A stretch of DNA of 19,134 nucleotides from an uncultured archaeon (GCA_964632315.1 CAZWEM010000062.1:1-19134), one strand, 5' to 3'. Shown: positions 1,310 to 16,537, counted from the stretch's first letter. Notes: generated from the sequence alone by a model not told the origin. Made by a program: numbers and translations.

Positions 1310-2147
1310 ATATGTCATTTTAGCCATATTACAAGGATTAGTTGAATGGTTGCCAATTTCTTCTTCAGGGCAAGTAGTTATTTTTTCAATTAACATCCTT
1401 GGTATTTCCCCAGAAAATGCATTTACGATAAGTATTTGGTTGCATTTAGGCACTACTTTGGCAGTATTAGTAAAAATGAGAAAAGAATACTTTAATATAG
1501 TCAAAACTATAATCTTCAAAAAGGGTAGATATGAGGAAAGAGATGTTAAATTACGAAATTGGCTTATTTATGCTACCCTTGGAACAGCTGTTACCGCGCT
1601 TCCATTATATTTTGTATTAAGGTATTTTATTCTTGATTCTTTTTCTGCGATTAGTGGGGATATCTTAACCTTAATTATTTCAGGCTTATTAATTCTTACC
1701 GGTTTGGTATTATTTTTTCTCAAAAAAAGTTTTGGAAATAAATCGATTGAAGGTCAATCCTTTAAGCAGATACGTAAAGATTCCTCTATTTCTGGTCTTA
1801 TTCAAGGAATTGCCGTACTCCCGGGCATCTCTCGATCTGGATTCACTGTTTCAAGTATTCTTTTTGAAAAATATAACCAAGATCAGTCATTGAATCTTAG
1901 TTTTTTAATGTCAGCTCCAGTTGTAATTGCATCTATTGGTGTTGACGTCCTTTTTGGAGATGGTTCTGTTTTCGGTACCCTAGATCTCATCACGATTTTT
2001 ATCACGACGGCTATTAGTTTTGTGATTGGATACCTTACTATGGGAGGATTATTAAAAGTCGCTCAAAAAATAAATTTCAGCTATTTCTGTATTTTTTACG
2101 GGATAATAGCATTCATATTCATTGTACCCGTATTGATTGTTACTTAA
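1302..2147 (+). CDS. uppP: Undecaprenyl/polyprenyl-diphosphate phosphatase (BacA/UppP family)
   Basis: Motifs LQGLVEWLPISSSG, LHLGT, QGIAVLPGISRSG and SFLMSAP; multiple hydrophobic helices. ATG at 1302 preceded by GTGAGG; the ORF track starts at the in-frame GTG at 1293. Confidence 0.92.
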   Translation: MLEYVILAILQGLVEWLPISSSGQVVIFSINILGISPENAFTISIWLHLGTTLAVLVKMRKEYFNIVKTIIFKKGRYEERDVKLRNWLIYATLGTAVTALPLYFVLRYFILDSFSAISGDILTLIISGLLILTGLVLFFLKKSFGNKSIEGQSFKQIRKDSSISGLIQGIAVLPGISRSGFTVSSILFEKYNQDQSLNLSFLMSAPVVIASIGVDVLFGDGSVFGTLDLITIFITTAISFVIGYLTMGGLLKVAQKINFSYFCIFYGIIAFIFIVPVLIVT

Positions 2148-3040
2148 TTTTCTTTTATATAATTTATTAAATAATCAGCTAATATCTTGGGAGCATTTTT
2201 AATACCCTTAAACCCTGGAAAATCATTTAAATCAATTAGATAATATCGATCTTTACTATTCAAGGGTTTAATAAGGTCAAAACCGAAGATTTTAAGGTCA
2301 AGTTTTTTTGCTAAAATTTTTGCTAAGGATACCATCTCAACAGAAGGCTTAAACTCGCTCCTCTGAATCGTATCAACATCGATCTGAGGAGATTTATTCC
2401 TCATGTAAATGTAAATGGGATTTTCTCTTTTGATTCCAAATACTTTATCTCCTATCACGTATATTTTCCTATCAATTCCATCACATTCAATAAATTTTTG
2501 CACGTACACATCATAGTATATTAAGTGATTATATTTTTCATAGAAGGTTTCAAAATCCTCTTTCTTTTTTGCCAAGAAAGTAAATCGATTATATTTATCA
2601 TGCTGAGAATGGCTCTTAATGACTATTGGAATCTTTGGAATTCCCCATTTCTTAAATCTTTCCAGGTTTTTTGCATTCTGGTTCCATGATTGTGCTAGTG
2701 AAAATTTTTTTAATTCAGTTTTATTGTTTGTAAAAATGTTCCTCAAGGCATAATCTAAAGCGATTTTATTTTTACAAGTTAGGACCGTTTTTACACCATG
2801 CAAACACTTAATACCATGAATTTGTGCATAGTGTAATAAATCAACCGAAGAATCATTTCTAACCTTCACAATATACAAATCTGCCTCTTTAAACGCTCTA
2901 GGCATTCGAGTAAGATAAAAAAATTGTTTTGTGGGATCATGAAACGTGAATTCAATATCTTTACTCTGTTTTAGTATTTCCTCGACCTTTTGGATTACAT
3001 CGTGGTCTTTTCTCGCAGAGAATATTACTTTTTTTGGCAT
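2144..3040 (-). CDS. ATP-grasp protein, inositol-trisphosphate 5/6-kinase (ITPK1)-like (copy A)
   Basis: YVQKFI, RKIYVIGDKVF..KR, LKIFGFDLI and YYLIDLNDFPGFKGI resemble the ITPK1 motifs KV(F/Y)VVG, LFG(I/F)D and IDIN(A/Y)FPGY. It has D-x-N instead of the RimK E-x-N. The fold is certain; kinase function is inferred. Confidence 0.75.
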   Translation of the reverse strand: MPKKVIFSARKDHDVIQKVEEILKQSKDIEFTFHDPTKQFFYLTRMPRAFKEADLYIVKVRNDSSVDLLHYAQIHGIKCLHGVKTVLTCKNKIALDYALRNIFTNNKTELKKFSLAQSWNQNAKNLERFKKWGIPKIPIVIKSHSQHDKYNRFTFLAKKKEDFETFYEKYNHLIYYDVYVQKFIECDGIDRKIYVIGDKVFGIKRENPIYIYMRNKSPQIDVDTIQRSEFKPSVEMVSLAKILAKKLDLKIFGFDLIKPLNSKDRYYLIDLNDFPGFKGIKNAPKILADYLINYIKEN

Positions 3041-3131
3041 TCTACAGTTTTTTAATTTCCAAAATAATTTTTAATGTAAAATATTAAGTAAAATTAATTA
3101 GTTTTCATAAAAAAATTAATGGGATATTTAT

Positions 3132-4439
3132 ATGAGTGAAAAAGCTTTTCATGGAATTTTATTAAAACAAGTGTTGCTTATAGGAATACTATATATGGGA
3201 GATTACTTATTTTTCTTCTTTGAACAAAACTACTTCAACACGTATTTAGATCACGTGCTCTATCTTCCCGAGTTGTACATTTCTACCATGGTTTCGTTAT
3301 CCGCGACTGTTGGACTTATATCGATGTTTCTTTGGGGGATTATTAGTGATAATACACGTTCTAAGTTCGGGAGGCGGCGCCCTTATCTGCTTCTTGGGGT
3401 TGTTGCAGGAATTGGAATGATTCTCTATAGTTTCGCATTTCCATTGTTCGGTCGAACTTTAGACGCTTATCTTTGGTGTTTAATTATTGATGTCATTATT
3501 ATTGGGTTTTCATCAAATGCATATTTAGTGGCAGAAAGAGCATTAATACCAGATACTATTGAAATTGAAAAGAGAGGTAGAGCTAATGGAATTATTAATT
3601 CAATTAGCTACATTGGATTATTAATAGGTGTTGCATTCTTATTACTTGGAAACGAATTATTTGGCATACCTGACCCTCGAGATACTACTCTACCTATTGG
3701 AACCATAATCCCGGAATTTGGTCATTTTATATTACTCTCTTTTGGAGGAATTGTCTTTATAATAGTTTCTATAGTTGGATTTTTGTTCATCAGAGAAAAG
3801 CCAGTAAGTGAATTGTCCGAGAAAAAGAATTTCTTCGCTGAAATAAAACAAACTTTTAATATCAAGGAATTAAGGACTCAAAAAGAATTTTATAAAATGC
3901 TTATAGCTTTCGTTGTTTTTCAATCTGGAATTGCCTCTGTAATGCCATTTCTATTTATATTCATCTTTGGTTTAGGAATGAGTACAATTACTTTACTGAT
4001 CGGAATTGCGATTGCGTTTCCAATAGTATTCATTGCAACACTATATCTTGGAAAACTTGCTGATAAAGCGGGTAGGAAAAAGTATGTTCCATTAGCAATT
4101 ATAATCGTTAGCATCGGATTCATGATAATGCCATTTGCTGGGGTGTTTGGTAATATAATGCTATTCATGATAAGTTTGCCATTTGTCTTGGTGGGTGTTT
4201 TGGCATTAGTGACTCCTTTAAATGCATGGACTCAAGATTTATTGCCAGCGGATAAGAGAGGTAAATTTACGGGCATTTTTAATGTGGTAAATACCGTGTC
4301 TCAAATCATTGGGTCTTTTGCTGGTGGTATTATCTCAATGATTTTCGGAATATCGTGGATATTTGTGCTTGGACCCATATTTTTCTTGATTTCGATTCCT
4401 CTTTTCATGCGAGTAGTAGAAACAGTAAAAAAAGATTAA
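3132..4439 (+). CDS. MFS transporter, glycoside/sugar (GPH-like) type
   Basis: About 12 hydrophobic segments; loop motifs WGIISDNTRSKFGRRRPY and LGKLADKAGRKK; PD..EKRGRANG and LLPADKRGKFTG repeats. Confidence 0.9.
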   Translation: MSEKAFHGILLKQVLLIGILYMGDYLFFFFEQNYFNTYLDHVLYLPELYISTMVSLSATVGLISMFLWGIISDNTRSKFGRRRPYLLLGVVAGIGMILYSFAFPLFGRTLDAYLWCLIIDVIIIGFSSNAYLVAERALIPDTIEIEKRGRANGIINSISYIGLLIGVAFLLLGNELFGIPDPRDTTLPIGTIIPEFGHFILLSFGGIVFIIVSIVGFLFIREKPVSELSEKKNFFAEIKQTFNIKELRTQKEFYKMLIAFVVFQSGIASVMPFLFIFIFGLGMSTITLLIGIAIAFPIVFIATLYLGKLADKAGRKKYVPLAIIIVSIGFMIMPFAGVFGNIMLFMISLPFVLVGVLALVTPLNAWTQDLLPADKRGKFTGIFNVVNTVSQIIGSFAGGIISMIFGISWIFVLGPIFFLISIPLFMRVVETVKKD

Positions 4440-4440
4440 T

Positions 4441-4460
4441 CCTTTATTTTTTTATTTTAT
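4441..4460 (+). terminator. Probable archaeal T-rich terminator after the MFS gene
   Basis: CCTTTATTTTTTTATTTTAT directly follows the stop at 4439, in the gap between convergent genes. Confidence 0.4.
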
Positions 4461-4469
4461 CCAGATTTG

Positions 4470-5483
4470 TTAGATTCTCTGAGGTTCTACAATTAACTTT
4501 ATCCATTTTTCTCTATCATAAAATTCAAAAGCGTTTATTGCCTCTTCCAAGCTGATCCTTTTAGTTATTAAAGATTTAAGATCAAGAGTCTTTGATGCAA
4601 TCATATTCAATGCGTCATTCCAGTAATCTCTATCATGTTTCGAATTAACCATTGCTTCAGGATAAACTAATTCTACCCCTTTCTTTCTGCAATTAACATA
4701 CGGTATGTACTGCATCTTCTGCGCCCCAAACACGATGACTCGATGACCAGGTTTAACTAGATCTATTGCACTCAGTAATGTTTCGTTATGACCAACCATT
4801 TCGAATACAGCGTGCACTTCGCCAAATTTTTTAATTATTTCATCAACAACAGTATAATTTCCATAAGTGGAACGAGAAAATATTATTGGATCAAATACTT
4901 TAGCACCCCATTGTTCAGCAATTGATCGTTTATGGTGATAAGGTTCAGAAGCAGCAACTTCAATACCATTATTTAATAAAATTTTAGTAAGGATTAGCCC
5001 AATTGGTCCTAATCCCAGAACTACAGCTTTTGTTTCTCCATCGAGTCTATCTAACTCTGCCCGTTCGAAGCAATTAATTGCACAGCCAACAGCATCAGCA
5101 AAGGAAATCTCCTCCACCGTAAGATCATTTCTTACTATCGGAAATGCGTCCTCTTTTTCATATTTTCCATGACCTATTACATTGACGTGAGTAGAATATT
5201 CTGCATATCCATTACCCATCCGAGCAAGATGATCCCCTTCATTGATTCCTTCAACATCCTTTCCAACCTCAACAGCAATTGCTCCCGTTTCATGCCCGTG
5301 TCCTCCTGGTTCATGAGCTATGATCCAATGAGTTCCTTCAAAGATCCCCACATCACTACCACATATACCCACGGAAATTATTTTTGCTAAAACCTCTGAA
5401 GAGGCAGGTTTAGGAATCTCAACATTTACCATCTCAACTTTCCAGGGCTCTGGAAAGAGTAACGCTCTCATAGTTTCATCCAT
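4470..5483 (-). CDS. Zn-dependent medium-chain dehydrogenase (polyol/sugar/cyclitol dehydrogenase-like)
   Basis: GICGSD and GHE catalytic-Zn motifs, Rossmann GLGPIG, AVFEMVG and C-terminal KLIVEP. No 4-Cys structural Zn lobe. Confidence 0.88.
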   Translation of the reverse strand: MDETMRALLFPEPWKVEMVNVEIPKPASSEVLAKIISVGICGSDVGIFEGTHWIIAHEPGGHGHETGAIAVEVGKDVEGINEGDHLARMGNGYAEYSTHVNVIGHGKYEKEDAFPIVRNDLTVEEISFADAVGCAINCFERAELDRLDGETKAVVLGLGPIGLILTKILLNNGIEVAASEPYHHKRSIAEQWGAKVFDPIIFSRSTYGNYTVVDEIIKKFGEVHAVFEMVGHNETLLSAIDLVKPGHRVIVFGAQKMQYIPYVNCRKKGVELVYPEAMVNSKHDRDYWNDALNMIASKTLDLKSLITKRISLEEAINAFEFYDREKWIKLIVEPQRI

Positions 5484-5488
5484 TTAAA

Positions 5489-8281
5489 TCATCTCCCCTT
5501 AATACCATCAATTAAAATTCTAATCATATTTAACAATCCAATTTTGGTGATTTCTGATGATGTTTTTGGTTCTTTTGATTCATCAAAGTTTTCATTCACG
5601 TATTTTACCCAGTTTAAATAAGTTCGCTCCATAACCTCCTCAAGATTTTGGCTCTTTATTAGGGAAGTTATTTCTTTTGTATATTGTTCATAATTATTAT
5701 AGAGTAGCTTTTTATCCTTGTCTCCTATAAATACTATTGGGTTCAAAGAAAAGTGATCCAAGAAATTTTGAGTATCAACAGGAGGCTTATCTCCAATATA
5801 AGGCGCTAAAACTAATTCAAAAGAAAGATTTTTGCCACTATAAGTCGGTGCTGTTGAATAATTCGTTCCAATTAATCCAGAAGTTAACTTTTGGGCATGA
5901 CCATTTCCGTCACTCCAATAGTTAAAGATTTCTCCATAATAGGTTCCAAAAGGATTTATGCGAACTTGTTGTGCCTTTTTTTCGAGATCTCCAAAACCTT
6001 TGTCACGAACTTTAATCGGAGAAAAAGCAAAATTTGCGGCTTTCAGGGAATTAAATCCAATTCCTAGTCCTTTATTTTGATTTGAAAGCGCCATCCATCC
6101 ATCTGAGATATTTGCTACAAGGCAATCAATATTAGCATTCTTAAGATCTACTTCCTTCATATTAATCCTAAAATAATCGATAACTCCAAAGAAGTTTTTC
6201 TTCCAAATATTCAAAAAGGAATCCAAGCCAAAAATGTGAGGTCTTACTTCACATGGCATTATTTCTTGCCATCTATCATCATAGGCAATATCAACATAAT
6301 AAGTTGAACCATCCACTGATGATGATTCTCCCTTGATATCTGGTAGAGCCATTGAGACTTCTGCTATTAAATATGGTAAGTCTGAGTATAAAGTCAACTT
6401 CTTTTCTGCTTTAACTTTATGACCTCCAATAATTTCAAACTCACTATCAATTTTGATTGCGGCTGAAAAGCCATCACTTCCATCCCTTAGGATTGAAATT
6501 TTATCTGTTAATGAAGAATATTTAGATATTTTTCCAGTTTTTCCAAAAGTGATCGAAGTCTCCAAAAATTTAGGGCACGCAAATTCCATTTTAGCGAATT
6601 GAAATGATTTAATTTTTCCAAAAGTATCAAATTCAATGGTAATATATTCATTTCGGAGTAGAATTTGAGAAGCAGTAAGTTTTTTGGTACCAATTTCTTT
6701 AGTTGTTTCAATTTCATTAAATGTGAAAGTAGCATTATTATAATTCTTAAATTCTTCCGGAGAAATTATGGCTTCAAAACTAATATCTTCAGATTCATCA
6801 TAACTCCTAAAATTAGTGAATGATTTTCCCGAATAAATGTTTTGTAATGAAAAATTACTATAAGGGGGTAAACTTTTTTTTGGAATTTTTGAATTTAAGA
6901 GAATTGGAGAATTGATTGGGACTATCTCATTTTTGGAGATTCCACGGATGGTGATTGGGTTTATCAACAAAAATTTTCCTTGATTATTGTTCACATTCTC
7001 TTCTAATTTTGTTTGAATTGCCTCATTTATCGCCATTTCCGAAAATTGGTAAGCTTTTATAACATAATTCAATGCTGTTTTAAACCTATCTGGATGCAAG
7101 AAAGGCATCGCCATCCCAAAATTAGTCGTGGAGGCAAATAATATTTTATTTTTAAGGTAAGTATCTTTAGAGTCATCAACACTTCGAAGAAGGTTGTTCA
7201 CTTCTTCTATTGCCTGTGGATTATTAAAATTTGATATCATACTATCCGAAGCACATTTTAACCATCTAGCTCTTTGACCATAAGTCCAAAAGGTAGTGTT
7301 GTTATATTTTTGAGCCCAATTATAGAACCCATTCCACATTCCATCAGCAACATCTTCCCGTAGTTCTGCCTTATCGTGTACCTTAAGTTTTGGAATTAAG
7401 TCTATTAAAGTTGCAAACTCGACAAATTCGTATTTATCAACAGCTTCAGCAAATTCCATCAAACCTCCAGAATTAGGCATCCATTTTAAAAATTTAGGCA
7501 AATTTAGGTTAATCCAATTATCGGAATCCATATCAAAATTAAAGAATATTAAAGCATGCTCAGCAATTACTCCGCTTTCCTGCTTATTCCTTAAAAACTC
7601 AAACCATTTTTTCGTTGAGCAAAAATCAAGTCTGTCACCAAATCCATACATAGGTATCATTAAGGTGGATGCATTGGATATAGTTGATTGTAAACGAACT
7701 AATCCATATCTTTGGTTCCAATCCAAACGAGGGTTAATGTAAGGACGAGCGACATCAAACCCATACATTGAGTAATAAAGGCAAACCCCTTCAATACCTA
7801 GTTTATTGTACAACTCAATCATTCCTTGAGTAAACATAGTTTCTTGAGCTCTTACATATGGAGCAACCCTCCCAGGGAATAACTGATTTACACCTATACC
7901 CATTGAATTTTGTAGGAACCATTTATGATCTTGTATTAATTCTTCTGTATCTAATGATGCTTGAGCACAATTTCCCCATGACCCGATTAATACCTCATCT
8001 ATTTCTTGCTTGCACCTTTCAATTAAACGATCTAAGGTATCGTTCTGAAATTCTTTTTGCAATTGGATGGACCAAAATAGGTCTCCATAATCCCAGGAAA
8101 TAGGCATACTACTGAAAGAGAATTCTCTCTGTTCTATTTTATCTAATTCTTCAAAAATCTCATTGAAAATTCGAATATCTTTCCCAAAACCAGTTATCCC
8201 TTTAGAATCGCCCCTATAAGAGTGATAATAATTAATGTGTGGAGATAAAACTAAATAGATCTTTTTCTCATCAAGATGCAC
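5489..8281 (-). CDS. Large cytoplasmic glycoside-hydrolase-like protein (GH57/GH38-type barrel plus C-terminal beta-sandwich)
   Basis: 930-aa ORF with GTG start. The N-terminal PHINYYH, RAQE and FDMD segments fall where GH57/GH38 barrels carry conserved His/Glu/Asp. LRNEYITIEFD..GKIKSF resembles the start of the GH38 C-terminal sandwich. No signal peptide. It ends 5 bp upstream of the dehydrogenase. Confidence 0.55.
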   Translation of the reverse strand: MHLDEKKIYLVLSPHINYYHSYRGDSKGITGFGKDIRIFNEIFEELDKIEQREFSFSSMPISWDYGDLFWSIQLQKEFQNDTLDRLIERCKQEIDEVLIGSWGNCAQASLDTEELIQDHKWFLQNSMGIGVNQLFPGRVAPYVRAQETMFTQGMIELYNKLGIEGVCLYYSMYGFDVARPYINPRLDWNQRYGLVRLQSTISNASTLMIPMYGFGDRLDFCSTKKWFEFLRNKQESGVIAEHALIFFNFDMDSDNWINLNLPKFLKWMPNSGGLMEFAEAVDKYEFVEFATLIDLIPKLKVHDKAELREDVADGMWNGFYNWAQKYNNTTFWTYGQRARWLKCASDSMISNFNNPQAIEEVNNLLRSVDDSKDTYLKNKILFASTTNFGMAMPFLHPDRFKTALNYVIKAYQFSEMAINEAIQTKLEENVNNNQGKFLLINPITIRGISKNEIVPINSPILLNSKIPKKSLPPYSNFSLQNIYSGKSFTNFRSYDESEDISFEAIISPEEFKNYNNATFTFNEIETTKEIGTKKLTASQILLRNEYITIEFDTFGKIKSFQFAKMEFACPKFLETSITFGKTGKISKYSSLTDKISILRDGSDGFSAAIKIDSEFEIIGGHKVKAEKKLTLYSDLPYLIAEVSMALPDIKGESSSVDGSTYYVDIAYDDRWQEIMPCEVRPHIFGLDSFLNIWKKNFFGVIDYFRINMKEVDLKNANIDCLVANISDGWMALSNQNKGLGIGFNSLKAANFAFSPIKVRDKGFGDLEKKAQQVRINPFGTYYGEIFNYWSDGNGHAQKLTSGLIGTNYSTAPTYSGKNLSFELVLAPYIGDKPPVDTQNFLDHFSLNPIVFIGDKDKKLLYNNYEQYTKEITSLIKSQNLEEVMERTYLNWVKYVNENFDESKEPKTSSEITKIGLLNMIRILIDGIKGR

Positions 8282-8470
8282 TTTCTAAACCTTTTTTAAT
8301 TTGGTATTTTATAGATTTAGTAGGAGAGAAATCAAAAAATTTTCTAAATTTTTAGTTATAATGATAAAAATTTAAAATGATATTCTAATTTCAAGAATAT
8401 TATTAGATTCAAAAAAACTAAATAAATAGATGATACTTTATTTGTTAGCAAGCTAGTATGTTTTATATAT

Positions 8471-8475
8471 GGTGA
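8471..8475 (+). promoter_or_regulatory. Shine-Dalgarno-like site for ino1
   Basis: GGTGA 7 nt before the GTG at 8483. The same GGTGA precedes the TTG at 11653, and AAGGAG precedes the TTG at 10816. Confidence 0.5.
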
Positions 8476-8482
8476 TTATTAG

Positions 8483-9571
8483 GTGAAAAATATCAATGTG
8501 GCATTAATTGGAGTTGGTGATGTAGCTAGCGCTTTGGTCCAAGGGGTAGAATATTATAAAAAGTACCCAGAAAAAATTATTGGAATGCTCCCTGAAATTA
8601 CTCAATATTCGGTTGAGGATATAAAGTTCGTGTTAGGGATTGATGTTAATGCGAAGAAGATCGGAAAAGATTTGAGCAAAGCCATTTTTATTGAACCAAA
8701 TTGTAACTTAAAATCATTTGAACCCGAAAATCTAAATGCTCCAGTTATTAAAGGACCTATTTTAGACGGTTTAAACAGTAATATTAAAGATATAATTCCA
8801 GTTGATACGGATCAACCCATATCTAATGTTAAGCAACATCTCAAAGAAAAAATGGTAGACGTTGTTGTGATTCTTCTTCCAACTGGTTGTCATGATGCTG
8901 TTAATTTTTATGTTCACGCCGCTCTTGATTCAGGAGCATGTATTGTGAATGGAATGCCATCACACGTTGCTAAGGATCCTACAATTATTCAAAAAGCAGA
9001 AGAACTGGGATTATCCGTCATAGGAGATGATGTAAAATCTCAAATCGGAGCAACCATCATCCATCGATCTTTAGCTAATTTATTTCCCATGAGGGGAGCA
9101 ATATTAGATCGCACTATACAATTAGATTGGGGAGGTTCATCCGATTTTTGTAATTTACTAACACCAAAACCAGATGGAAAATTATATTACGAAGAAGGAA
9201 AAAGACAATCTAAAACGGATGCAGTTATAGCTAAATTACAAAATAAAGATGACGTAGAATGCCAGATTTCTGCCGTTGATTACATTCCATTTCTTAAAAA
9301 TCAAAAAGAAGCATACATGAGATTAGAAGGAAGGATTTTTGGGGGAGCCCCAGTTCGAGTGGACATAACTATGTTTGTAGAAGATGGCAATAATTCCGCG
9401 GGTATAATCGCTGATTGTATACGAGTCTCAAAAATAGCCAAAGACCGTTCTATTGGAGGCGTATTAGAATCTGCTTGTTCCTTTTTTAATAAACATCCTC
9501 CTGAACAGCTTGAAGATAATGTAGCAAAACAAAGATTGATAGATTTCGTTCAAGATAAAAGAGAGAGATAA
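8483..9571 (+). CDS. ino1: Myo-inositol-1-phosphate synthase (archaeal/actinobacterial type), divergent
   Basis: Motifs VALIGVGDVASALVQG, LPTG, GDDVKSQIGATIIHR, QL..GG..DF, SKT, DYIPFL..QK, ED..NSAG and KHPP. Confidence 0.92.
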   Translation: MKNINVALIGVGDVASALVQGVEYYKKYPEKIIGMLPEITQYSVEDIKFVLGIDVNAKKIGKDLSKAIFIEPNCNLKSFEPENLNAPVIKGPILDGLNSNIKDIIPVDTDQPISNVKQHLKEKMVDVVVILLPTGCHDAVNFYVHAALDSGACIVNGMPSHVAKDPTIIQKAEELGLSVIGDDVKSQIGATIIHRSLANLFPMRGAILDRTIQLDWGGSSDFCNLLTPKPDGKLYYEEGKRQSKTDAVIAKLQNKDDVECQISAVDYIPFLKNQKEAYMRLEGRIFGGAPVRVDITMFVEDGNNSAGIIADCIRVSKIAKDRSIGGVLESACSFFNKHPPEQLEDNVAKQRLIDFVQDKRER

Positions 9572-9579
9572 AATCGATT

Positions 9580-10488
9580 TTAACTTTTAATCATTGCAGT
9601 TTTACTTATTATTTCTTCTCTTATTTGAATCAAGTTATAAATCTGGTCTGAAATAAGACTTACCCCTTCTGGAATATTTCGAAAACTGGGAAAATCATTA
9701 ACATCTACGATGTAAGACTCTCCCATTGTTTCAATATAGTCCACTCCGAATACTGGCATCCCTAATCTTTTTCCCAGCCTTTTTATCCGCCGTTTTAATT
9801 TTTCATCTATTAGGGATCGAATATGGATTAATTCTAAGGGATTTAAATTCTTATTTTGAAGTCGGTTATGTGAAATTATCGATACAATCCAATCTCCAAT
9901 TACATATACCTTATTAATGACATCGAGTTTTCCCAAATATTGTTGAAAAAATAACTCATTTACATCATATCTTTCTATAAGTATTGCAAGTTCATGTACA
10001 GATTTTGCAATGCCTAATATCCGATCATTTTTAGGCAAGTCCGGAATGTTATGAGAATCTAATTTCACAATGATCTGAAACCCATCGTTCAATGCTTGCT
10101 TAGCCTCAGTAATAGTTTTGAAGAATTTAGGAATGTTTACTTTTTTAACGTTTCTCTCTATAAATTGAAAAGTAGCTTTTCTACTTTCACAGGTCCTCAC
10201 TGAAAATAAGCTATTTAAAATTGGGATGTTTGGAGTGACCCTTTTGATTATATCATAGATTTTCTGATTCTCTTTTTGAGATGTAAGCTTGACTATTAAA
10301 AAAACAATTGGATATTTCTTTAACCTTTTCTTATAATATTTTTCATTAAAAGCTTCTAATCCATGTTTCATGAAATCAATTAGTATAATATTATAATTTT
10401 TTGAAAGAAAGTTTTTGATTTGGTTTAAAACTTGGAGATCTCGATTGCAAATGGCACCTATATACTGTTTTTTAAGATTGTTTGCCAT
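9580..10488 (-). CDS. ATP-grasp protein, ITPK1-like (copy B)
   Basis: PILNS..SVRTCESR, FFQQYL, KVYVIGD, LGMPVFGVDYI and YIVDVNDFPSFRNIP; D-x-N-x-F-P signature. Confidence 0.75.
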   Translation of the reverse strand: MANNLKKQYIGAICNRDLQVLNQIKNFLSKNYNIILIDFMKHGLEAFNEKYYKKRLKKYPIVFLIVKLTSQKENQKIYDIIKRVTPNIPILNSLFSVRTCESRKATFQFIERNVKKVNIPKFFKTITEAKQALNDGFQIIVKLDSHNIPDLPKNDRILGIAKSVHELAILIERYDVNELFFQQYLGKLDVINKVYVIGDWIVSIISHNRLQNKNLNPLELIHIRSLIDEKLKRRIKRLGKRLGMPVFGVDYIETMGESYIVDVNDFPSFRNIPEGVSLISDQIYNLIQIREEIISKTAMIKS

Positions 10489-10815
10489 TTGAACACCAAC
10501 TCTTTCAGTTTAAATTGCATAAAGCTAAACATAGTATATAAAACTATTGATAAAGATTTAGCTGATTAATTAAAAAAATACCGGTTTCTCTAATCCCTAA
10601 ACTATTCCTCTTAATTTAAATATTAAATTAATGAGACTTATCTCCCGCTATTTAAATCATATAAAACTGAAGCTAAAAACTTATAAGAGACACTATTAGA
10701 AAGACATTTGTAGAGAACTTTTTTTTTACTCTTATTGATTTAAATTTAATGGAGATTATTACAATATAGACCCAAGAAAATCAGATTATGATTATTAAGA
10801 CAAAGGAGATATTTT

Positions 10816-11634
10816 TTGATAACGCTTGGATTAATTATTGACGAGTATCATCTGGAAAAAAAGGTCACCGAATTTTTAAATTACATGCGAAAAAAAGTAA
10901 AAGTAAATTTCTATGTTGAAGAAAGAGAGTTCATAGATTTTTCAAAACATGAGTTCAAGGAAGATATATTTTTTGTCAAGGCGAAAGGTGAATTAGTGTT
11001 AAATTTAGTTAAGCTAATAGAACATGAAACAAGCATCCCTGTGATAAATAGTTCCAAGAGTATATGGTTATGCTACAATCGATTCTTAAACAGCACGCTC
11101 CTAAAAAAAGTAGGGATAAATGTACCCGATTTCTCTCTTAATCCAATTGGTAATCTTCCTCTATTTAAGGATTACATTATAAAAAATATTAAAGATCAAA
11201 AAAATTATGCATTTAAGCCCATAATTAAAGATAATGAACAGGAAATACAAATTAGTGATGAAAGGGCATTGATTGAAGCAACAAGTGATAATTATAATTA
11301 TCGATTCCTATATTATCAAAGTTTTATCAAAAGTGAATGGGAATATAAGGTGTATTGTATTGGAGACGAACTCCTTTATTTTAAACAACTACCAGTTTTA
11401 ATTAATCCTAATAAAATGGAATCAAGGAAGAAGATAAAAGAAATAAAAGAATTACGGAATTATTCATTGAAGGCAGTTGAGAGTTTGGGTTTAAAAATTG
11501 CTTCTTTAGACTTTCTTAAGTCTGAAGGAGGAGATTATTATCTTACAGACATAAATTCTTCTCCAAATTTTGATTATATCACAAATGGCGCTAAGATTGT
11601 TGGAAATTATTTAATAAAGATAGCAAGGTCTTGA
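10816..11634 (+). CDS. ATP-grasp protein, ITPK1/RimK-like (copy C)
   Basis: PVINS..SIWLCYNR, GINVPD, YYQSFI, EYKVYCIGD, LGLKIASLDFL and YYLTDINSSPNF. TTG start with AAGGAG upstream. Confidence 0.72.
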   Translation: MITLGLIIDEYHLEKKVTEFLNYMRKKVKVNFYVEEREFIDFSKHEFKEDIFFVKAKGELVLNLVKLIEHETSIPVINSSKSIWLCYNRFLNSTLLKKVGINVPDFSLNPIGNLPLFKDYIIKNIKDQKNYAFKPIIKDNEQEIQISDERALIEATSDNYNYRFLYYQSFIKSEWEYKVYCIGDELLYFKQLPVLINPNKMESRKKIKEIKELRNYSLKAVESLGLKIASLDFLKSEGGDYYLTDINSSPNFDYITNGAKIVGNYLIKIARS

Positions 11635-11652
11635 AAAAAGGGTGAAGTCAAA

Positions 11653-12444
11653 TTGAAAATAGGAATTTTATCAAAAAGGAAAGAAATGTTTGCTGGTGAT
11701 TTAAGTAATTATTTGCAATCAAAGGGACATATAGTTGAAATTTTTACATTAAAGAATTTAATTATAAATAAAGAACTCTTAAAAAATGATTTATTTATTT
11801 TAAAATCGAAACAATTATTTTTTCTTTATGCGGGATATTTTATTGAATCTAACAATATATCCATATATCCTAGCACAGAAATTGCATTTAAAACTAAAAA
11901 TAGAATAGAAGCATACTTCCTCATAAAAAAAGCAGGATTGTTGAGTCCCAACATCTATCTTGGAACAAGGGATGTGCTAAATAGAAATCTCTTATTTAAT
12001 TCAGGTCCTTTTATTCAAAAACCTATTATGAGCTCTGGAAGTAAAGGAATTAAATTAATTAATGACCCCGAGGATATTGAAGCAGAAGAACACGAAATTC
12101 TTTATATAGAAAAATTCATCATTGGAATCCATTATTTAGCTTACTTTATTAATGATGAAATTCTGGTCTATGAAAAAGAACCACTATCTAATGAGCACGC
12201 TCACGTAAAAAAGACAGATCTCACTGAGGATCTTGAAAGTATAGTTTTGAAGTGGAAAAATGAAAATGGTCTTTTTTTTGGACATTTAGATCTTGTCAAG
12301 GAAGAGAATACAAATAAGTTTTATATTGTAGATACGGGTTGCTTTCCTGAATTTTCACATTGGAAAAATAGAATTGAAGCAGTAAAATCTATTTGGGATA
12401 TAATTCTAACTTTATATGAAAAAGATTTGAAAGTTAATAACTGA
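11653..12444 (+). CDS. ATP-grasp protein, RimK/ITPK1-like, degenerate metal motif (copy D)
   Basis: MKIGILS N-terminus, PFIQKPIMSSGSKGIKLI, YIEKFI, GHLDLV and FYIVDTGCFPEF. TTG start with GGTGA upstream. Confidence 0.7.
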   Translation: MKIGILSKRKEMFAGDLSNYLQSKGHIVEIFTLKNLIINKELLKNDLFILKSKQLFFLYAGYFIESNNISIYPSTEIAFKTKNRIEAYFLIKKAGLLSPNIYLGTRDVLNRNLLFNSGPFIQKPIMSSGSKGIKLINDPEDIEAEEHEILYIEKFIIGIHYLAYFINDEILVYEKEPLSNEHAHVKKTDLTEDLESIVLKWKNENGLFFGHLDLVKEENTNKFYIVDTGCFPEFSHWKNRIEAVKSIWDIILTLYEKDLKVNN

Positions 12445-12447
12445 AAT

Positions 12448-13422
12448 ATGAAAATGGCTACTAAAAAATATGCTAATGGGCTACCTGAACAGAAAGTTAG
12501 GTTATACAAAATCAAGCATTTTATTTTCGACTTTGGGGGAGTTTTAATTGAAAAAACTTTTGTCCTCGACAATTTATTCGATCTAATAGAACATGATTTG
12601 TCAATCAAAATACCAGAAAAAGATAGTAATCTTTTTCTTAGAAAAATTAGAAGAAGATTGAGTAAAGGCGTGATTTCAGCAAGAGATTTCCTTAATTTAG
12701 TAATAGATAGATATTATAAACCTGAGGAAAATGAATTAAGTGCATTGCCTCTGAAAAAAGTTAACATAGAATATTATTTGGAGTTATGGTTCAATCTTTA
12801 TACTAAAGTAACAAAAATATCATCTGATATGGCTTTAATAGTTGAAAGATTACATCAAGGAGGATATGTGGTTAGTTTAATGTCCAATACTTATGATATT
12901 TATGCACGATCTAATGATTTACGCGGTTTTTATGAAATTTTTGATCATGTCTTTTTATCAAATGAGATCGGTTTGATCAAACCGGATATGGACAAATATA
13001 AACATGTATTAAATAAATTAGAAGCAAAACCTAAAAATTGTGTATTTATAGATGACAAACTCAGAAATCTTATCCCCGCTCATAAATTAGGCATAATAGT
13101 AATAAAATTTGAATCTTTTGAAAAGTTTAATCACCAATTAAATGAATTAGGAATCTCTAAACTCAAAATAAACTTCAGAAAAGATATAAGAAAAAAATAT
13201 GAATACTATAAAAAAGTAAAAAAAGAATATAAAAAGGCTAAAAAGGAATATAAGAAAGCTAAAGAAGATTACCTTAATAAGAAGCATGCTAAGAAAAAGC
13301 GTGGAAAAAAAAGAGAGAATTTTGAACTAAAAAGAGAATTTTATAAAGAGAAAAAAAGAAAATATAAATCTGAGAAGAAGAGAAAGAAAAATGAATTAGA
13401 AAGTGAAGTAAAACTAACCTAA
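12448..13422 (+). CDS. HAD-superfamily phosphatase (subfamily IA, YihX-like) with C-terminal Lys-rich coiled-coil extension
   Basis: Motif I FIFDFGGVL, motif II MSNT, motif III KPD and motif IV FIDD. The last 81 aa contain 32 Lys and 7 Arg. Starts 3 bp after the previous stop. Confidence 0.88.
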   Translation: MKMATKKYANGLPEQKVRLYKIKHFIFDFGGVLIEKTFVLDNLFDLIEHDLSIKIPEKDSNLFLRKIRRRLSKGVISARDFLNLVIDRYYKPEENELSALPLKKVNIEYYLELWFNLYTKVTKISSDMALIVERLHQGGYVVSLMSNTYDIYARSNDLRGFYEIFDHVFLSNEIGLIKPDMDKYKHVLNKLEAKPKNCVFIDDKLRNLIPAHKLGIIVIKFESFEKFNHQLNELGISKLKINFRKDIRKKYEYYKKVKKEYKKAKKEYKKAKEDYLNKKHAKKKRGKKRENFELKREFYKEKKRKYKSEKKRKKNELESEVKLT

Positions 13423-15805: not shown

Positions 15806-16537
15806 TCACGTTTCGAATGATAACCATCGAATTACATTTTCTAAAAATTTGAGATTGTCACCAGCATCTAATCCAAAATCAGAATCTTCGATCATAAAAT
15901 CTGAAGATCCAATAGTTACACAGCGCCCATTATAAAATTCAGAAACCACGCAAATCGGAACTGGTCCGATCGCTCCAGTCTCATCATCTAGATAATATTT
16001 AAATTCCGCCTTTTCAGAGGTAATTATGATATCTTCCACATCTTCTTCAGAAATCGTAAAAAAAGTGCAATTAGGAAGCACTAGTTCTGTTACACCATCA
16101 GTAATTGGATGATTAAATAGATCATTAAGCAATAAGTTACTCCTACTCACTAAAAAATTTGAAGTCGCTTCTTGTATGATACCATTCCAGAACCTGCGAA
16201 CTCCTGTTATTTTATATAAAACACGAATAGAACCTTTTTTCATTGGAATATCTTTGTCTCCCCCATCTCCAGTGGTTAATAATAAACCACCTCCTTCTCC
16301 CACAAATTTTTTAATTGCAAGTAATTCATTTTGCGTGAATTTATCAGCTTTGCTATCCGCCGTTTGTTGAATGTTTCCCATAAATAAAACATCGTAATCT
16401 TCAAGCATTTCAAATTCGATGGGTCCTTCATTCTTGTCAATATAATCTACATCGAAATCATCTTCTCCTAAGGCAAACTCCGGAAATTCTTCGATCTTTT
16501 CTTTATGTGACAAGTCGCATATAATAGAGTAACTCAT
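15806..16537 (-). CDS. Stand-alone GIFT (GldG/IFT52)/DUF4350-like domain protein, class I glutamine-amidotransferase-like fold
   Basis: IICDLSHKE, KFTQNELLAIKKFVGEGGGLLL, HPITDGV, GRCVTIGSS and DNLKFLENVIRWL. Acidic, with no signal peptide. Confidence 0.7.
   Translation of the reverse strand: MSYSIICDLSHKEKIEEFPEFALGEDDFDVDYIDKNEGPIEFEMLEDYDVLFMGNIQQTADSKADKFTQNELLAIKKFVGEGGGLLLTTGDGGDKDIPMKKGSIRVLYKITGVRRFWNGIIQEATSNFLVSRSNLLLNDLFNHPITDGVTELVLPNCTFFTISEEDVEDIIITSEKAEFKYYLDDETGAIGPVPICVVSEFYNGRCVTIGSSDFMIEDSDFGLDAGDNLKFLENVIRWLSFET

Follow-up and report, generated by a model that had tools for sequence, protein, structure and literature searches.

Soluble inositol phosphates count as a hallmark of eukaryotes, and it is chiefly from the ITPK homologues of Lokiarchaea that a pre-eukaryotic origin of these molecules is argued. 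Enzymes of the myo-inositol-3-phosphate synthase (MIPS) family convert glucose-6-phosphate into inositol-3-phosphate (Ins3P). The closest described locus is that of Lokiarchaeum, for which the PNAS article reports four ITPK1 homologues (LcIKA-D), with kinases flanking the inositol-phosphate synthase gene (IPS), and a partial restoration of InsP6 by LcIKC in yeast plc1-delta cells, which lack phospholipase C (Desfougeres et al., 2019; PMC6900528). Here we analyzed a stretch of 19,134 nucleotides from an uncultured archaeon (GCA_964632315.1, CAZWEM010000062.1:1-19134; hereafter the window), in which nine genes, among them a MIPS gene and four genes for ATP-grasp proteins, lie side by side. The genes are labeled g1 to g9 as open reading frames (ORFs) of the window in 5' to 3' order (Table 1), while genera (g1, g12, g13 and so on) and families (f1 to f3) carry taxon labels and are always named as such. 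The original prediction had described nine genes between 2144 and 13422 and had assigned them to families; ORFs were found at exactly these coordinates, and the Pfam and NCBIfam scans agreed. The window probably holds a Lokiarchaeial "kinase-synthase-kinase" inositol locus together with an unrelated inserted cassette, g1 and g6 acting on Ins3P and g7-g9 extending or trimming the pathway. Overall, the initial observation is confirmed and its interpretation partly supported: the kinase-MIPS core is real, conserved in one family and already published.

The published arrangement is recovered in the window, where g1 and g6 flank the MIPS gene g5; they do so directly in genera g12 and g17 and on contigs from Loki's Castle. 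These marine sediment contigs (SRR1555744/PRJNA259156), found through a g1 homologue (P0108, labeled LCGC14 in NCBI and 60% identical to g1), carry the order HAD (322 aa)-g8-g7, g6, MIPS, g1, UppP-LMWPTP-isochorismatase, i.e., the order of the window without g2-g4. We take PRJNA259156 to hold the data of the paper in which Lokiarchaeota were discovered. Because the Loki's Castle contigs carry the same order, g1 and g6 are read as orthologues of the published flanking kinases, and comparison with the published ITPK1 loci returned one and the same kinase-synthase-kinase layout. The suspicion that the kinases alone were probably not new was hence well placed, the core layout being present in PMC6900528. 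The window resembles the Lokiarchaeum LcIKA-D/IPS loci in having ITPK1 homologues on either side of the synthase gene, but its genome belongs to another genus and carries an MFS-dehydrogenase-GH57/38-like insert between g1 and MIPS. As a separate matter, an identification of g6 with LcIKC through Arg156 was considered and no mapping is claimed: R156 of g6 agrees, yet the Loki's Castle orthologue, as called, has its Arg at 153.

Conservation of the arrangement extends well beyond the window. Across 29 related loci, six genera of family f1 show the order isochorismatase-LMWPTP-UppP, g1, MIPS, g6, g7-g8-(HAD), FKBP-rSAM-g12, and genera g1, g12, g16, g17, g20 and g22 retain g1-MIPS-g6-g7-g8 as the core order. 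Orthologues of g6 were found in 116 of the 131 f1 genomes sampled, the g5-type MIPS (75-84% identity) was found only where g6-g8 occur, and a pair of adjacent g6-like and g7-like genes is present in another family, f3. Synteny across Asgard genomes shows MIPS and the ITPK kinases as a conserved unit in six genera of one Lokiarchaeial family, while the trio g2-g3-g4 proved variable and the flanking genes equally collinear.

A demonstrable likeness to ITPKs is confined to g1 and g6. The four ATP-grasp proteins are distant paralogues of each other (pairwise identity 23-26%), and orthologue profiles of g1, g6, g7 and g8 were built from the related loci and run against the PDB. The g1 profile matched solely inositol-phosphate kinases (StITPK1, ZmITPK1, HsITPK1, AtITPK4, Vip1/PPIP5K and EhITPK; best 7e-11) and the g6 profile solely ITPKs (ITPK1, ITPK4 and EhITPK; best AtITPK4 at 5e-7). 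Both proteins exceed the PF05770 gathering cut-off of 23 bits (Table 1), the match of g1 covering just positions 122-200 of the 201 of the profile. When aligned to potato StITPK1 (8oxe), g1 retains the KxYVxGD...KR strand, FxFD and DxN, and its residues K192, R205, D255, D270 and N272 do not vary among 19 orthologues; it thereby possesses the ITPK metal ligands (D and D-x-N) and Lys/Arg equivalents of human K199 and R212 (human ITPK1 numbering, including H162/H167, as given in PMC6900528). Residues K193, D250, D262 and N264 of g6 align to those of ITPKs and are conserved. Judged by their sequences, g1 and g6 are members of the ITPK family in which the ATP/Mg residues and the substrate-contacting Lys/Arg residues are kept.

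With the eukaryotic ITPK1 and ITPK4 (PF05770; 2q7d, 8oxe, 7pup) they have in common the ATP-grasp fold, the D...DxN ligands and the K199 equivalent, the R212 equivalent being kept in g1, whereas the sequence alignment is limited to the C-terminal third to half of g1 and g6, the substrate-loop His of ITPK is not clearly retained in the window proteins, and these are 30-40 residues shorter. In the loop that follows the ATP-binding Lys of g1 (KSHSQHDKYNR), H147 is nearly and R152 fully invariant, and the N-terminal half of the protein was left unaligned to ITPKs by HMMER. Protein-atlas look-ups for g1 and g8 returned mixed RimK/PF05770 neighbors and no eukaryotic cluster. As predicted kinases, g1 and g6 would phosphorylate stepwise, toward higher soluble inositol phosphates, the Ins3P that g5 would supply from glucose-6-phosphate.

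The synthase itself is of the M. tuberculosis Ino1 type. Its PF01658 score (Table 1) is well above the cut-off of 27 bits, and it matched Ino1 of M. tuberculosis (1gr0) end to end (1.2e-82, residues 3-356), the match to the Archaeoglobus-type MIPS being far weaker (6e-6); it stayed below the TIGR03450 equivalog cut-off (310 vs. 638). The 4.45-Mb genome holds a single PF01658 match, so that g5 is the sole MIPS detected, and outside the window it carries four CDP-alcohol phosphatidyltransferases and two IMPase-family genes. The idea of a MIPS paralogue dedicated to the cluster was therefore rejected: g5, as the only MIPS of a genome with four CDP-alcohol transferases elsewhere, is not a pathway-dedicated copy and is housekeeping as well as clustered. 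Within the window, no match to CDP-alcohol phosphotransferase or cytidylyltransferase families was found among the 17 ORFs of at least 80 aa, as the original prediction had noted. Two further observations concern inositol genes outside the window. A marginal PI-PLC-X match (E 5.9e-4) lies within a 296-aa frame of the same genome (G000:C11:48142-48585) and, including neighboring pieces, reaches 24.3 bits against a cut-off of 23.1, and one genome of genus g16 (G075) has three tandem MIPS paralogues, 32%, 45% and 76% identical to g5, beside g4-ADH (L032:5993-9453).

The other two ATP-grasp proteins, g7 and g8, are more difficult to place. All four had been proposed as ITPK-type kinases; this stands for g1 and g6, with their PF05770 and PDB profile matches, while g7 and g8 gave their best matches to ArgX, LysX and RimK, and the grouping with RimK/LysX/CofF ligases that had been named as the outcome speaking against the proposal was thus found in part, for both proteins in profile searches and for g7 also by fold. 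The alternative that survives best, which we nonetheless hold to be rather unlikely, is that g7 and g8, possibly together with the HAD protein, are carboxylate-amine ligases of the RimK/LysX type; the locus would then make an inositol-derived conjugate (a solute, a cofactor or a head group), or the two proteins would act on an unrelated peptide or metabolite. The PDB profile search for g7 was led by ArgX (1.4e-4), with EhITPK at 0.08 and no PF05770 match for the protein, and that for g8 by ArgX (7e-6), followed by PurK and LysX. Orthologues of g7 are named "RimK family alpha-L-glutamate ligase" by PGAP, g8 has a glycine-rich loop typical of ligases (KPxxGSGSKG), and both proteins share with RimK, LysX and ArgX the compact three-domain fold of about 270 aa. 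In the curated ligase models, in contrast, both fall far under the cut-offs (rimK_fam, 42.9 bits for g7 and 24.5 bits for g8 vs. 143.4; likewise MptN, LysX and CofF), g7 lacks the glycine-rich loop and keeps D-x-N, and g8 has D-x-G where the ligases have E/D-x-N. This altered metal site (D227-x-G229) is invariant in 21 g8 orthologues, and its counterpart is invariant also in distant bacterial relatives. The window, moreover, has no LysW-like carrier and no lysine/arginine pathway context, and neither a carrier protein nor an amino-acid pathway gene stands nearby.

Among detectable relatives, the g1 group stands nearest to g7: aligned to the g1 profile with hhalign, g7 reached Prob 97.9 (E 4e-13, near full length), and we therefore read it as a paralogue of the ITPK-like protein; the profile-profile match of g8 to g1 was weaker (Prob 92.7). 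The AlphaFold2 (AF2) model of g7 (pLDDT 89.6) gave Z scores of 22.8 for ArgX, 22.0 for LysX/ArgX, 21.9 for RimK, 20.4 for PPIP5K2, 19.1 for human ITPK1 and 18.4-19.1 for ITPK1s, every comparison covering about 250 residues at 3.2-3.6 A. With a gap of about 2-4 Z units within one fold, the model does not separate a kinase from a ligase, even though ArgX stands above human ITPK1.

The 120 proteins listed in a homologue search with the g7 profile were all orthologues, and the g8 family is small, with 295 proteins at E <= 1e-3 in an HMM search of the full library. Its mid-range members match RimK and PF05770 about equally, and in a bacterial-looking subgroup D-x-G is invariant, while a K-x-R-x-x-H-G motif, which presumably resembles the ITPK1 substrate loop, is largely conserved. 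Members of this subgroup, distant relatives of g8, stand on metagenome contigs in an operon that recurs, with GHMP kinase, (MDR dehydrogenase), Rieske, AMP-binding and ATP-grasp genes (L069:3040-8673; L075:1812-6825). In one case a MIPS gene comes next, directly beside the g8 relative, and in another a DAHP-synthase-like gene; the whole looks like an undescribed small-molecule pathway. Such apparently biosynthetic surroundings would suit ligases as well. A related-locus search for the distant relatives with a narrower alignment returned one short Betaproteobacteria contig.

The gene that closes this operon, g9, passes the Pfam HAD models (Table 1) and has its best PDB matches in the phosphatase domain of sEH (3e-10) and in YihX (1.6e-9). 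Motif I does not read DxDx(T/V): it is FDFGGV and aligns with FDLGNV of YihX, so that the general-acid Asp is missing, as it is in this glucose-1-phosphate phosphatase. Thus g9 shares with YihX (the E. coli alpha-D-glucose-1-phosphate phosphatase) and the sEH N-terminal phosphatase the HAD-IA core, and with YihX the Gly at the position of the second Asp of motif I, but differs from both in a conserved tail of 80-97 aa, about 40-50% Lys/Arg, that lies outside the region compared with these enzymes. The D-x-G motif and the tail, which has 31-43 Lys/Arg and KKEYKKAKK-type repeats, are kept in 13 of 13 orthologues across genera (e.g., L023:6954-7652, minus strand; L049:1265-2233, minus strand). 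Plant ITPK4 is a natural fusion of a HAD-like domain and an ITPK (PMC7614388), paralleling the HAD gene of this locus, although its HAD-like domain is capless and atypical, which that of g9 is not. By analogy, the fusion may be taken as a weak, independent hint that the pairing of HAD and ITPK is meaningful.

Under the preferred reading, i.e., an inositol locus with an inserted cassette, the divergently transcribed g7-g8-g9 operon would extend or trim the inositol-phosphate pathway. In this scheme g7 would most likely be another kinase-like paralogue and g8 may be an atypical partner whose metal site is altered, while g9 would be a phosphatase for substrates with good leaving groups, a role that we infer from the missing general-acid Asp, and its polybasic tail could bind polyanions. 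A more specific proposal, to which we give only a small share of belief, sees the operon as an undescribed extension of archaeal inositol-phosphate metabolism, with two neofunctionalised ATP-grasps reaching beyond ITPK1 chemistry, one of them through the D-x-G site that it has in common with the bacterial relatives beside MIPS or DAHP-synthase-like genes, and with the tail of a HAD phosphatase lacking the general acid binding a polyanionic product. Candidate reactions would be phosphorylation at a position out of the reach of ITPK1, formation of a phosphoanhydride, or a ligation with a cyclitol phosphate as acceptor. No published description of the g7-g8-g9 operon was found, and the main text of PMC6900528, which describes just the kinases flanking IPS, does not mention g7-g8-HAD.

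Several observations weigh against the assignment of the locus to inositol phosphates. Gene order is weak evidence, indicating collinearity rather than selection for clustering, because unrelated flanks (isochorismatase, LMW-PTP, UppP, FKBP26 and radical SAM) are equally syntenic across the family. In genera g13 and g14 the MIPS-g6-g7-g8-HAD block is missing and the g1 kinase stays, beside FKBP (L037); MIPS genes lie on other contigs of these genomes, as paralogues of 35-42% identity only, and g1 is thus kept apart from them. The sole MIPS of the window genome must also feed any inositol lipids, and its location is no proof of a dedication to inositol phosphates. No match to IPK was found in the genome, and a search of it for the IP5 2-kinase family was blank and carries no information, its controls being equally silent; InsP6 may therefore lie beyond the canonical route. 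Of about 20 relatives with contigs spanning the position, 5 had no detected HAD gene at the locus. Lastly, g7 and g8 may be ligases, given that ArgX, LysX and RimK outscore ITPKs in the PDB profile and fold searches.

The conserved flanks, the separation of g1 from MIPS in genera g13 and g14, and a MIPS that is a single housekeeping copy would all suit the view that adjacency is inherited collinearity without shared function and that the ATP-grasps are inactive on inositol compounds in vivo. We consider this improbable: chance would hardly gather four paralogues of one fold around the sole MIPS, the g5-type MIPS and g6-g8 occur together, an independent ATP-grasp/MIPS adjacency stands in a bacterial-looking operon, and a published Lokiarchaeal homologue has inositol-phosphate kinase activity in yeast (PMC6900528).

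The idea that the cluster is ancestral to eukaryotic inositol-phosphate signaling has lost ground through its distribution. Among 250 other Asgard genomes searched in six frames, which are samples and not proofs of absence, PF05770 matches were almost restricted to family f1 (49 of 54 genomes, as compared to 1 of 5 in the sister family f2 and 0 of 191 in 26 other Asgard families), and g7 was found in 43 of 54 f1 genomes and in 0 of the 196 elsewhere.

The three genes inserted between g1 and MIPS probably have a different history. Judging from its sequence, g3 is a polyol-dehydrogenase branch member of the MDRs: its best PDB matches are ketose reductase (1e3j, 3e-18) and sorbitol and threonine dehydrogenases, and its best NCBIfam match is the scyllo-inosose 3-dehydrogenase IolM (1.1e-21), tied with threonine dehydrogenase. 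The 930-aa g4 matched no Pfam or NCBIfam family at E <= 0.01, and the label "GH-like" that it had been given holds at the level of the fold. Its AF2 model (pLDDT 88.4, pTM 0.92) retrieved GH38 alpha-mannosidases over the full length with Foldseek (1e-21), and in the VIA comparison GH57 enzymes reached Z 20-23.6 on residues 5-412 and GH38 enzymes Z 19-20 over about 670 residues. The model has a seven-stranded barrel as catalytic domain, plus helical and beta-sandwich domains. The barrel is thus like that of GH57 (4-alpha-glucanotransferase, amylopullulanase and branching enzyme), and the overall architecture, with barrel, helical bundle and C-terminal beta-sandwich, like that of GH38 alpha-mannosidases; unlike either, g4 shows just 9-14% identity to them, has no Pfam match and belongs to a family (152 proteins at E <= 1e-5) that hardly extends past Asgard archaea, from which nearly all of its named members come. 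E147 is nearly invariant, and N248, D250 and D252, which sit at strand ends, do not vary; E147 and D250/D252 may be guessed to be the candidate catalytic residues.

The slot that houses these genes is variable. It is empty in genera g12 and g17 and on the Loki's Castle contig, and g4 is present in 7 of 24 genomes of the same genus and in 2 of 11 f2 genomes. The MFS gene g2 is found there alone, duplicated or not at all, and other contents of the slot are MFS with an 812-aa gene, SBP_bac_5, or MFS with GH2 and URO-D-like genes. Gene remnants remain in place in two genomes, of g4 in G081 and of the dehydrogenase in G148. Outside the slot, g4 and the dehydrogenase are adjacent in Lokiarchaeum ossiferum, with no inositol gene within 8 kb, in an f2 genome the trio has GH2, URO-D-like and GlmS genes as neighbors and neither MIPS nor an ATP-grasp, and in another Asgard genome (L056) g4 adjoins MFS and URO-D-like genes. 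Some of the genes seen at these sites are curious in themselves. An 812-813-aa protein is encoded between MIPS and MFS in two genomes of the same genus (G018 and G010; L025:11586-14024, plus strand; L026:4107-6548, plus strand), which was considered as a g4 relative and rejected, since it has no similarity to g4 and no Pfam family. One genome of the same genus has an insertion of a 1435-aa ORF, without Pfam family, between g4 and MIPS (L018:6938-11245, minus strand), and a pair of GH2 beta-galactosidase-like and URO-D-like genes recurs, once in the slot and once beside MFS-ADH-g4 (L033:13070-16007; L019:11558-14792).

We conclude that g2-g3-g4 is a separate, dispensable insert and not part of the inositol core. 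The most economical reading is that of a predicted cassette for the uptake and breakdown of a glycoside or polyol, which would have been inherited separately, in a recombination-prone slot, and would not be needed by the inositol pathway. The original view of all nine genes as one module for soluble inositol phosphates or a modified cyclitol, covering synthesis, phosphorylation, dephosphorylation, oxidation, deglycosylation and transport, is hardly tenable, since the trio, even if it occupies the same slot in genera g1, g16, g20 and g22 and may be old there, is absent, reduced, decayed, replaced by other carbohydrate genes or standing alone in relatives, the HAD gene is itself patchy, and the IolM match, suggestive of inositol as it is, scores 77 bits against a cut-off of 450.

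The window is an entire contig (C62) of a genome in 119 contigs, with a G+C content of about 31%. Where named, homologues of its proteins belong to Lokiarchaeota/Promethearchaeota metagenome-assembled genomes, and the source is a Lokiarchaeial (Promethearchaeota) genome; in a sequencing-run search, the DNA runs bearing the locus were salt-marsh or marsh metagenomes, and no RNA runs were listed. The nine genes are divided among at least five transcription units that alternate in strand, with operon-like spacing solely from g4 to g3 (5 bp) and from g7 to g8 to g9 (18 and 3 bp). They are flanked on the g1 side by isochorismatase, LMW-PTP and UppP genes and on the g9 side by FKBP26, radical-SAM, GIFT-like, NosD-like and FrhB-like genes; Rfam families and tRNAs were not found in the window. 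The GIFT-like gene (15806-16537, minus strand) encodes a 243-aa protein with a borderline match to the IFT52 GIFT domain (26.8 bits, cut-off 27.2), and shows family-wide synteny with the radical-SAM and FKBP26 genes.

Table 1. The nine genes of the inositol locus and of its insert, with positions in the window.
Gene	Position	Strand	Product or predicted function	Family evidence
g1	2144-3040	-	298 aa, ITPK-family ATP-grasp, predicted inositol-phosphate kinase	PF05770 Ins134_P3_kin, 59 bits
g2	3132-4439	+	MFS transporter	MFS_1 at 1e-50
g3	4470-5483	-	337 aa, Zn-type MDR dehydrogenase, polyol-dehydrogenase type	ADH_N + ADH_zinc_N
g4	5489-8281	-	930 aa, GH57/GH38-like	Fold only; no Pfam/NCBIfam family
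g5	8483-9571	+	MIPS, myo-inositol-3-phosphate synthase	PF01658, 73 bits
g6	9580-10488	-	302 aa, second ITPK-family ATP-grasp, convergent with MIPS	PF05770, 31.4 bits
g7	10816-11634	+	272 aa, diverged ATP-grasp paralogue, opens the g7-g8-g9 operon	No Pfam match
g8	11653-12444	+	263 aa, most diverged ATP-grasp, D-x-G replaces D-x-N	ATP-grasp_3 at 0.005 only
g9	12448-13422	+	HAD-IA phosphatase, YihX/sEH N-terminal type; polybasic C-terminal tail at about 13177-13422	PF00702, 55 bits

The comparison defines a conserved unit, made of MIPS, a pair of ITPK-like kinases, another two ATP-grasp paralogues and often a tailed HAD phosphatase, and sets it apart from a hitch-hiking sugar cassette, whose g4 is a relative of GH57 and GH38 that is well folded in the model, centered on Asgard archaea and without a sequence family. 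The part still worth experiment is the conserved g7-g8-HAD operon and its kinase or ligase chemistry, and a set of five to six proteins is concretely available for reconstitution. The spread of the unit is narrow, almost one Lokiarchaeial family in the genomes sampled, and any vertical descent of soluble inositol phosphates to eukaryotes must account for this.

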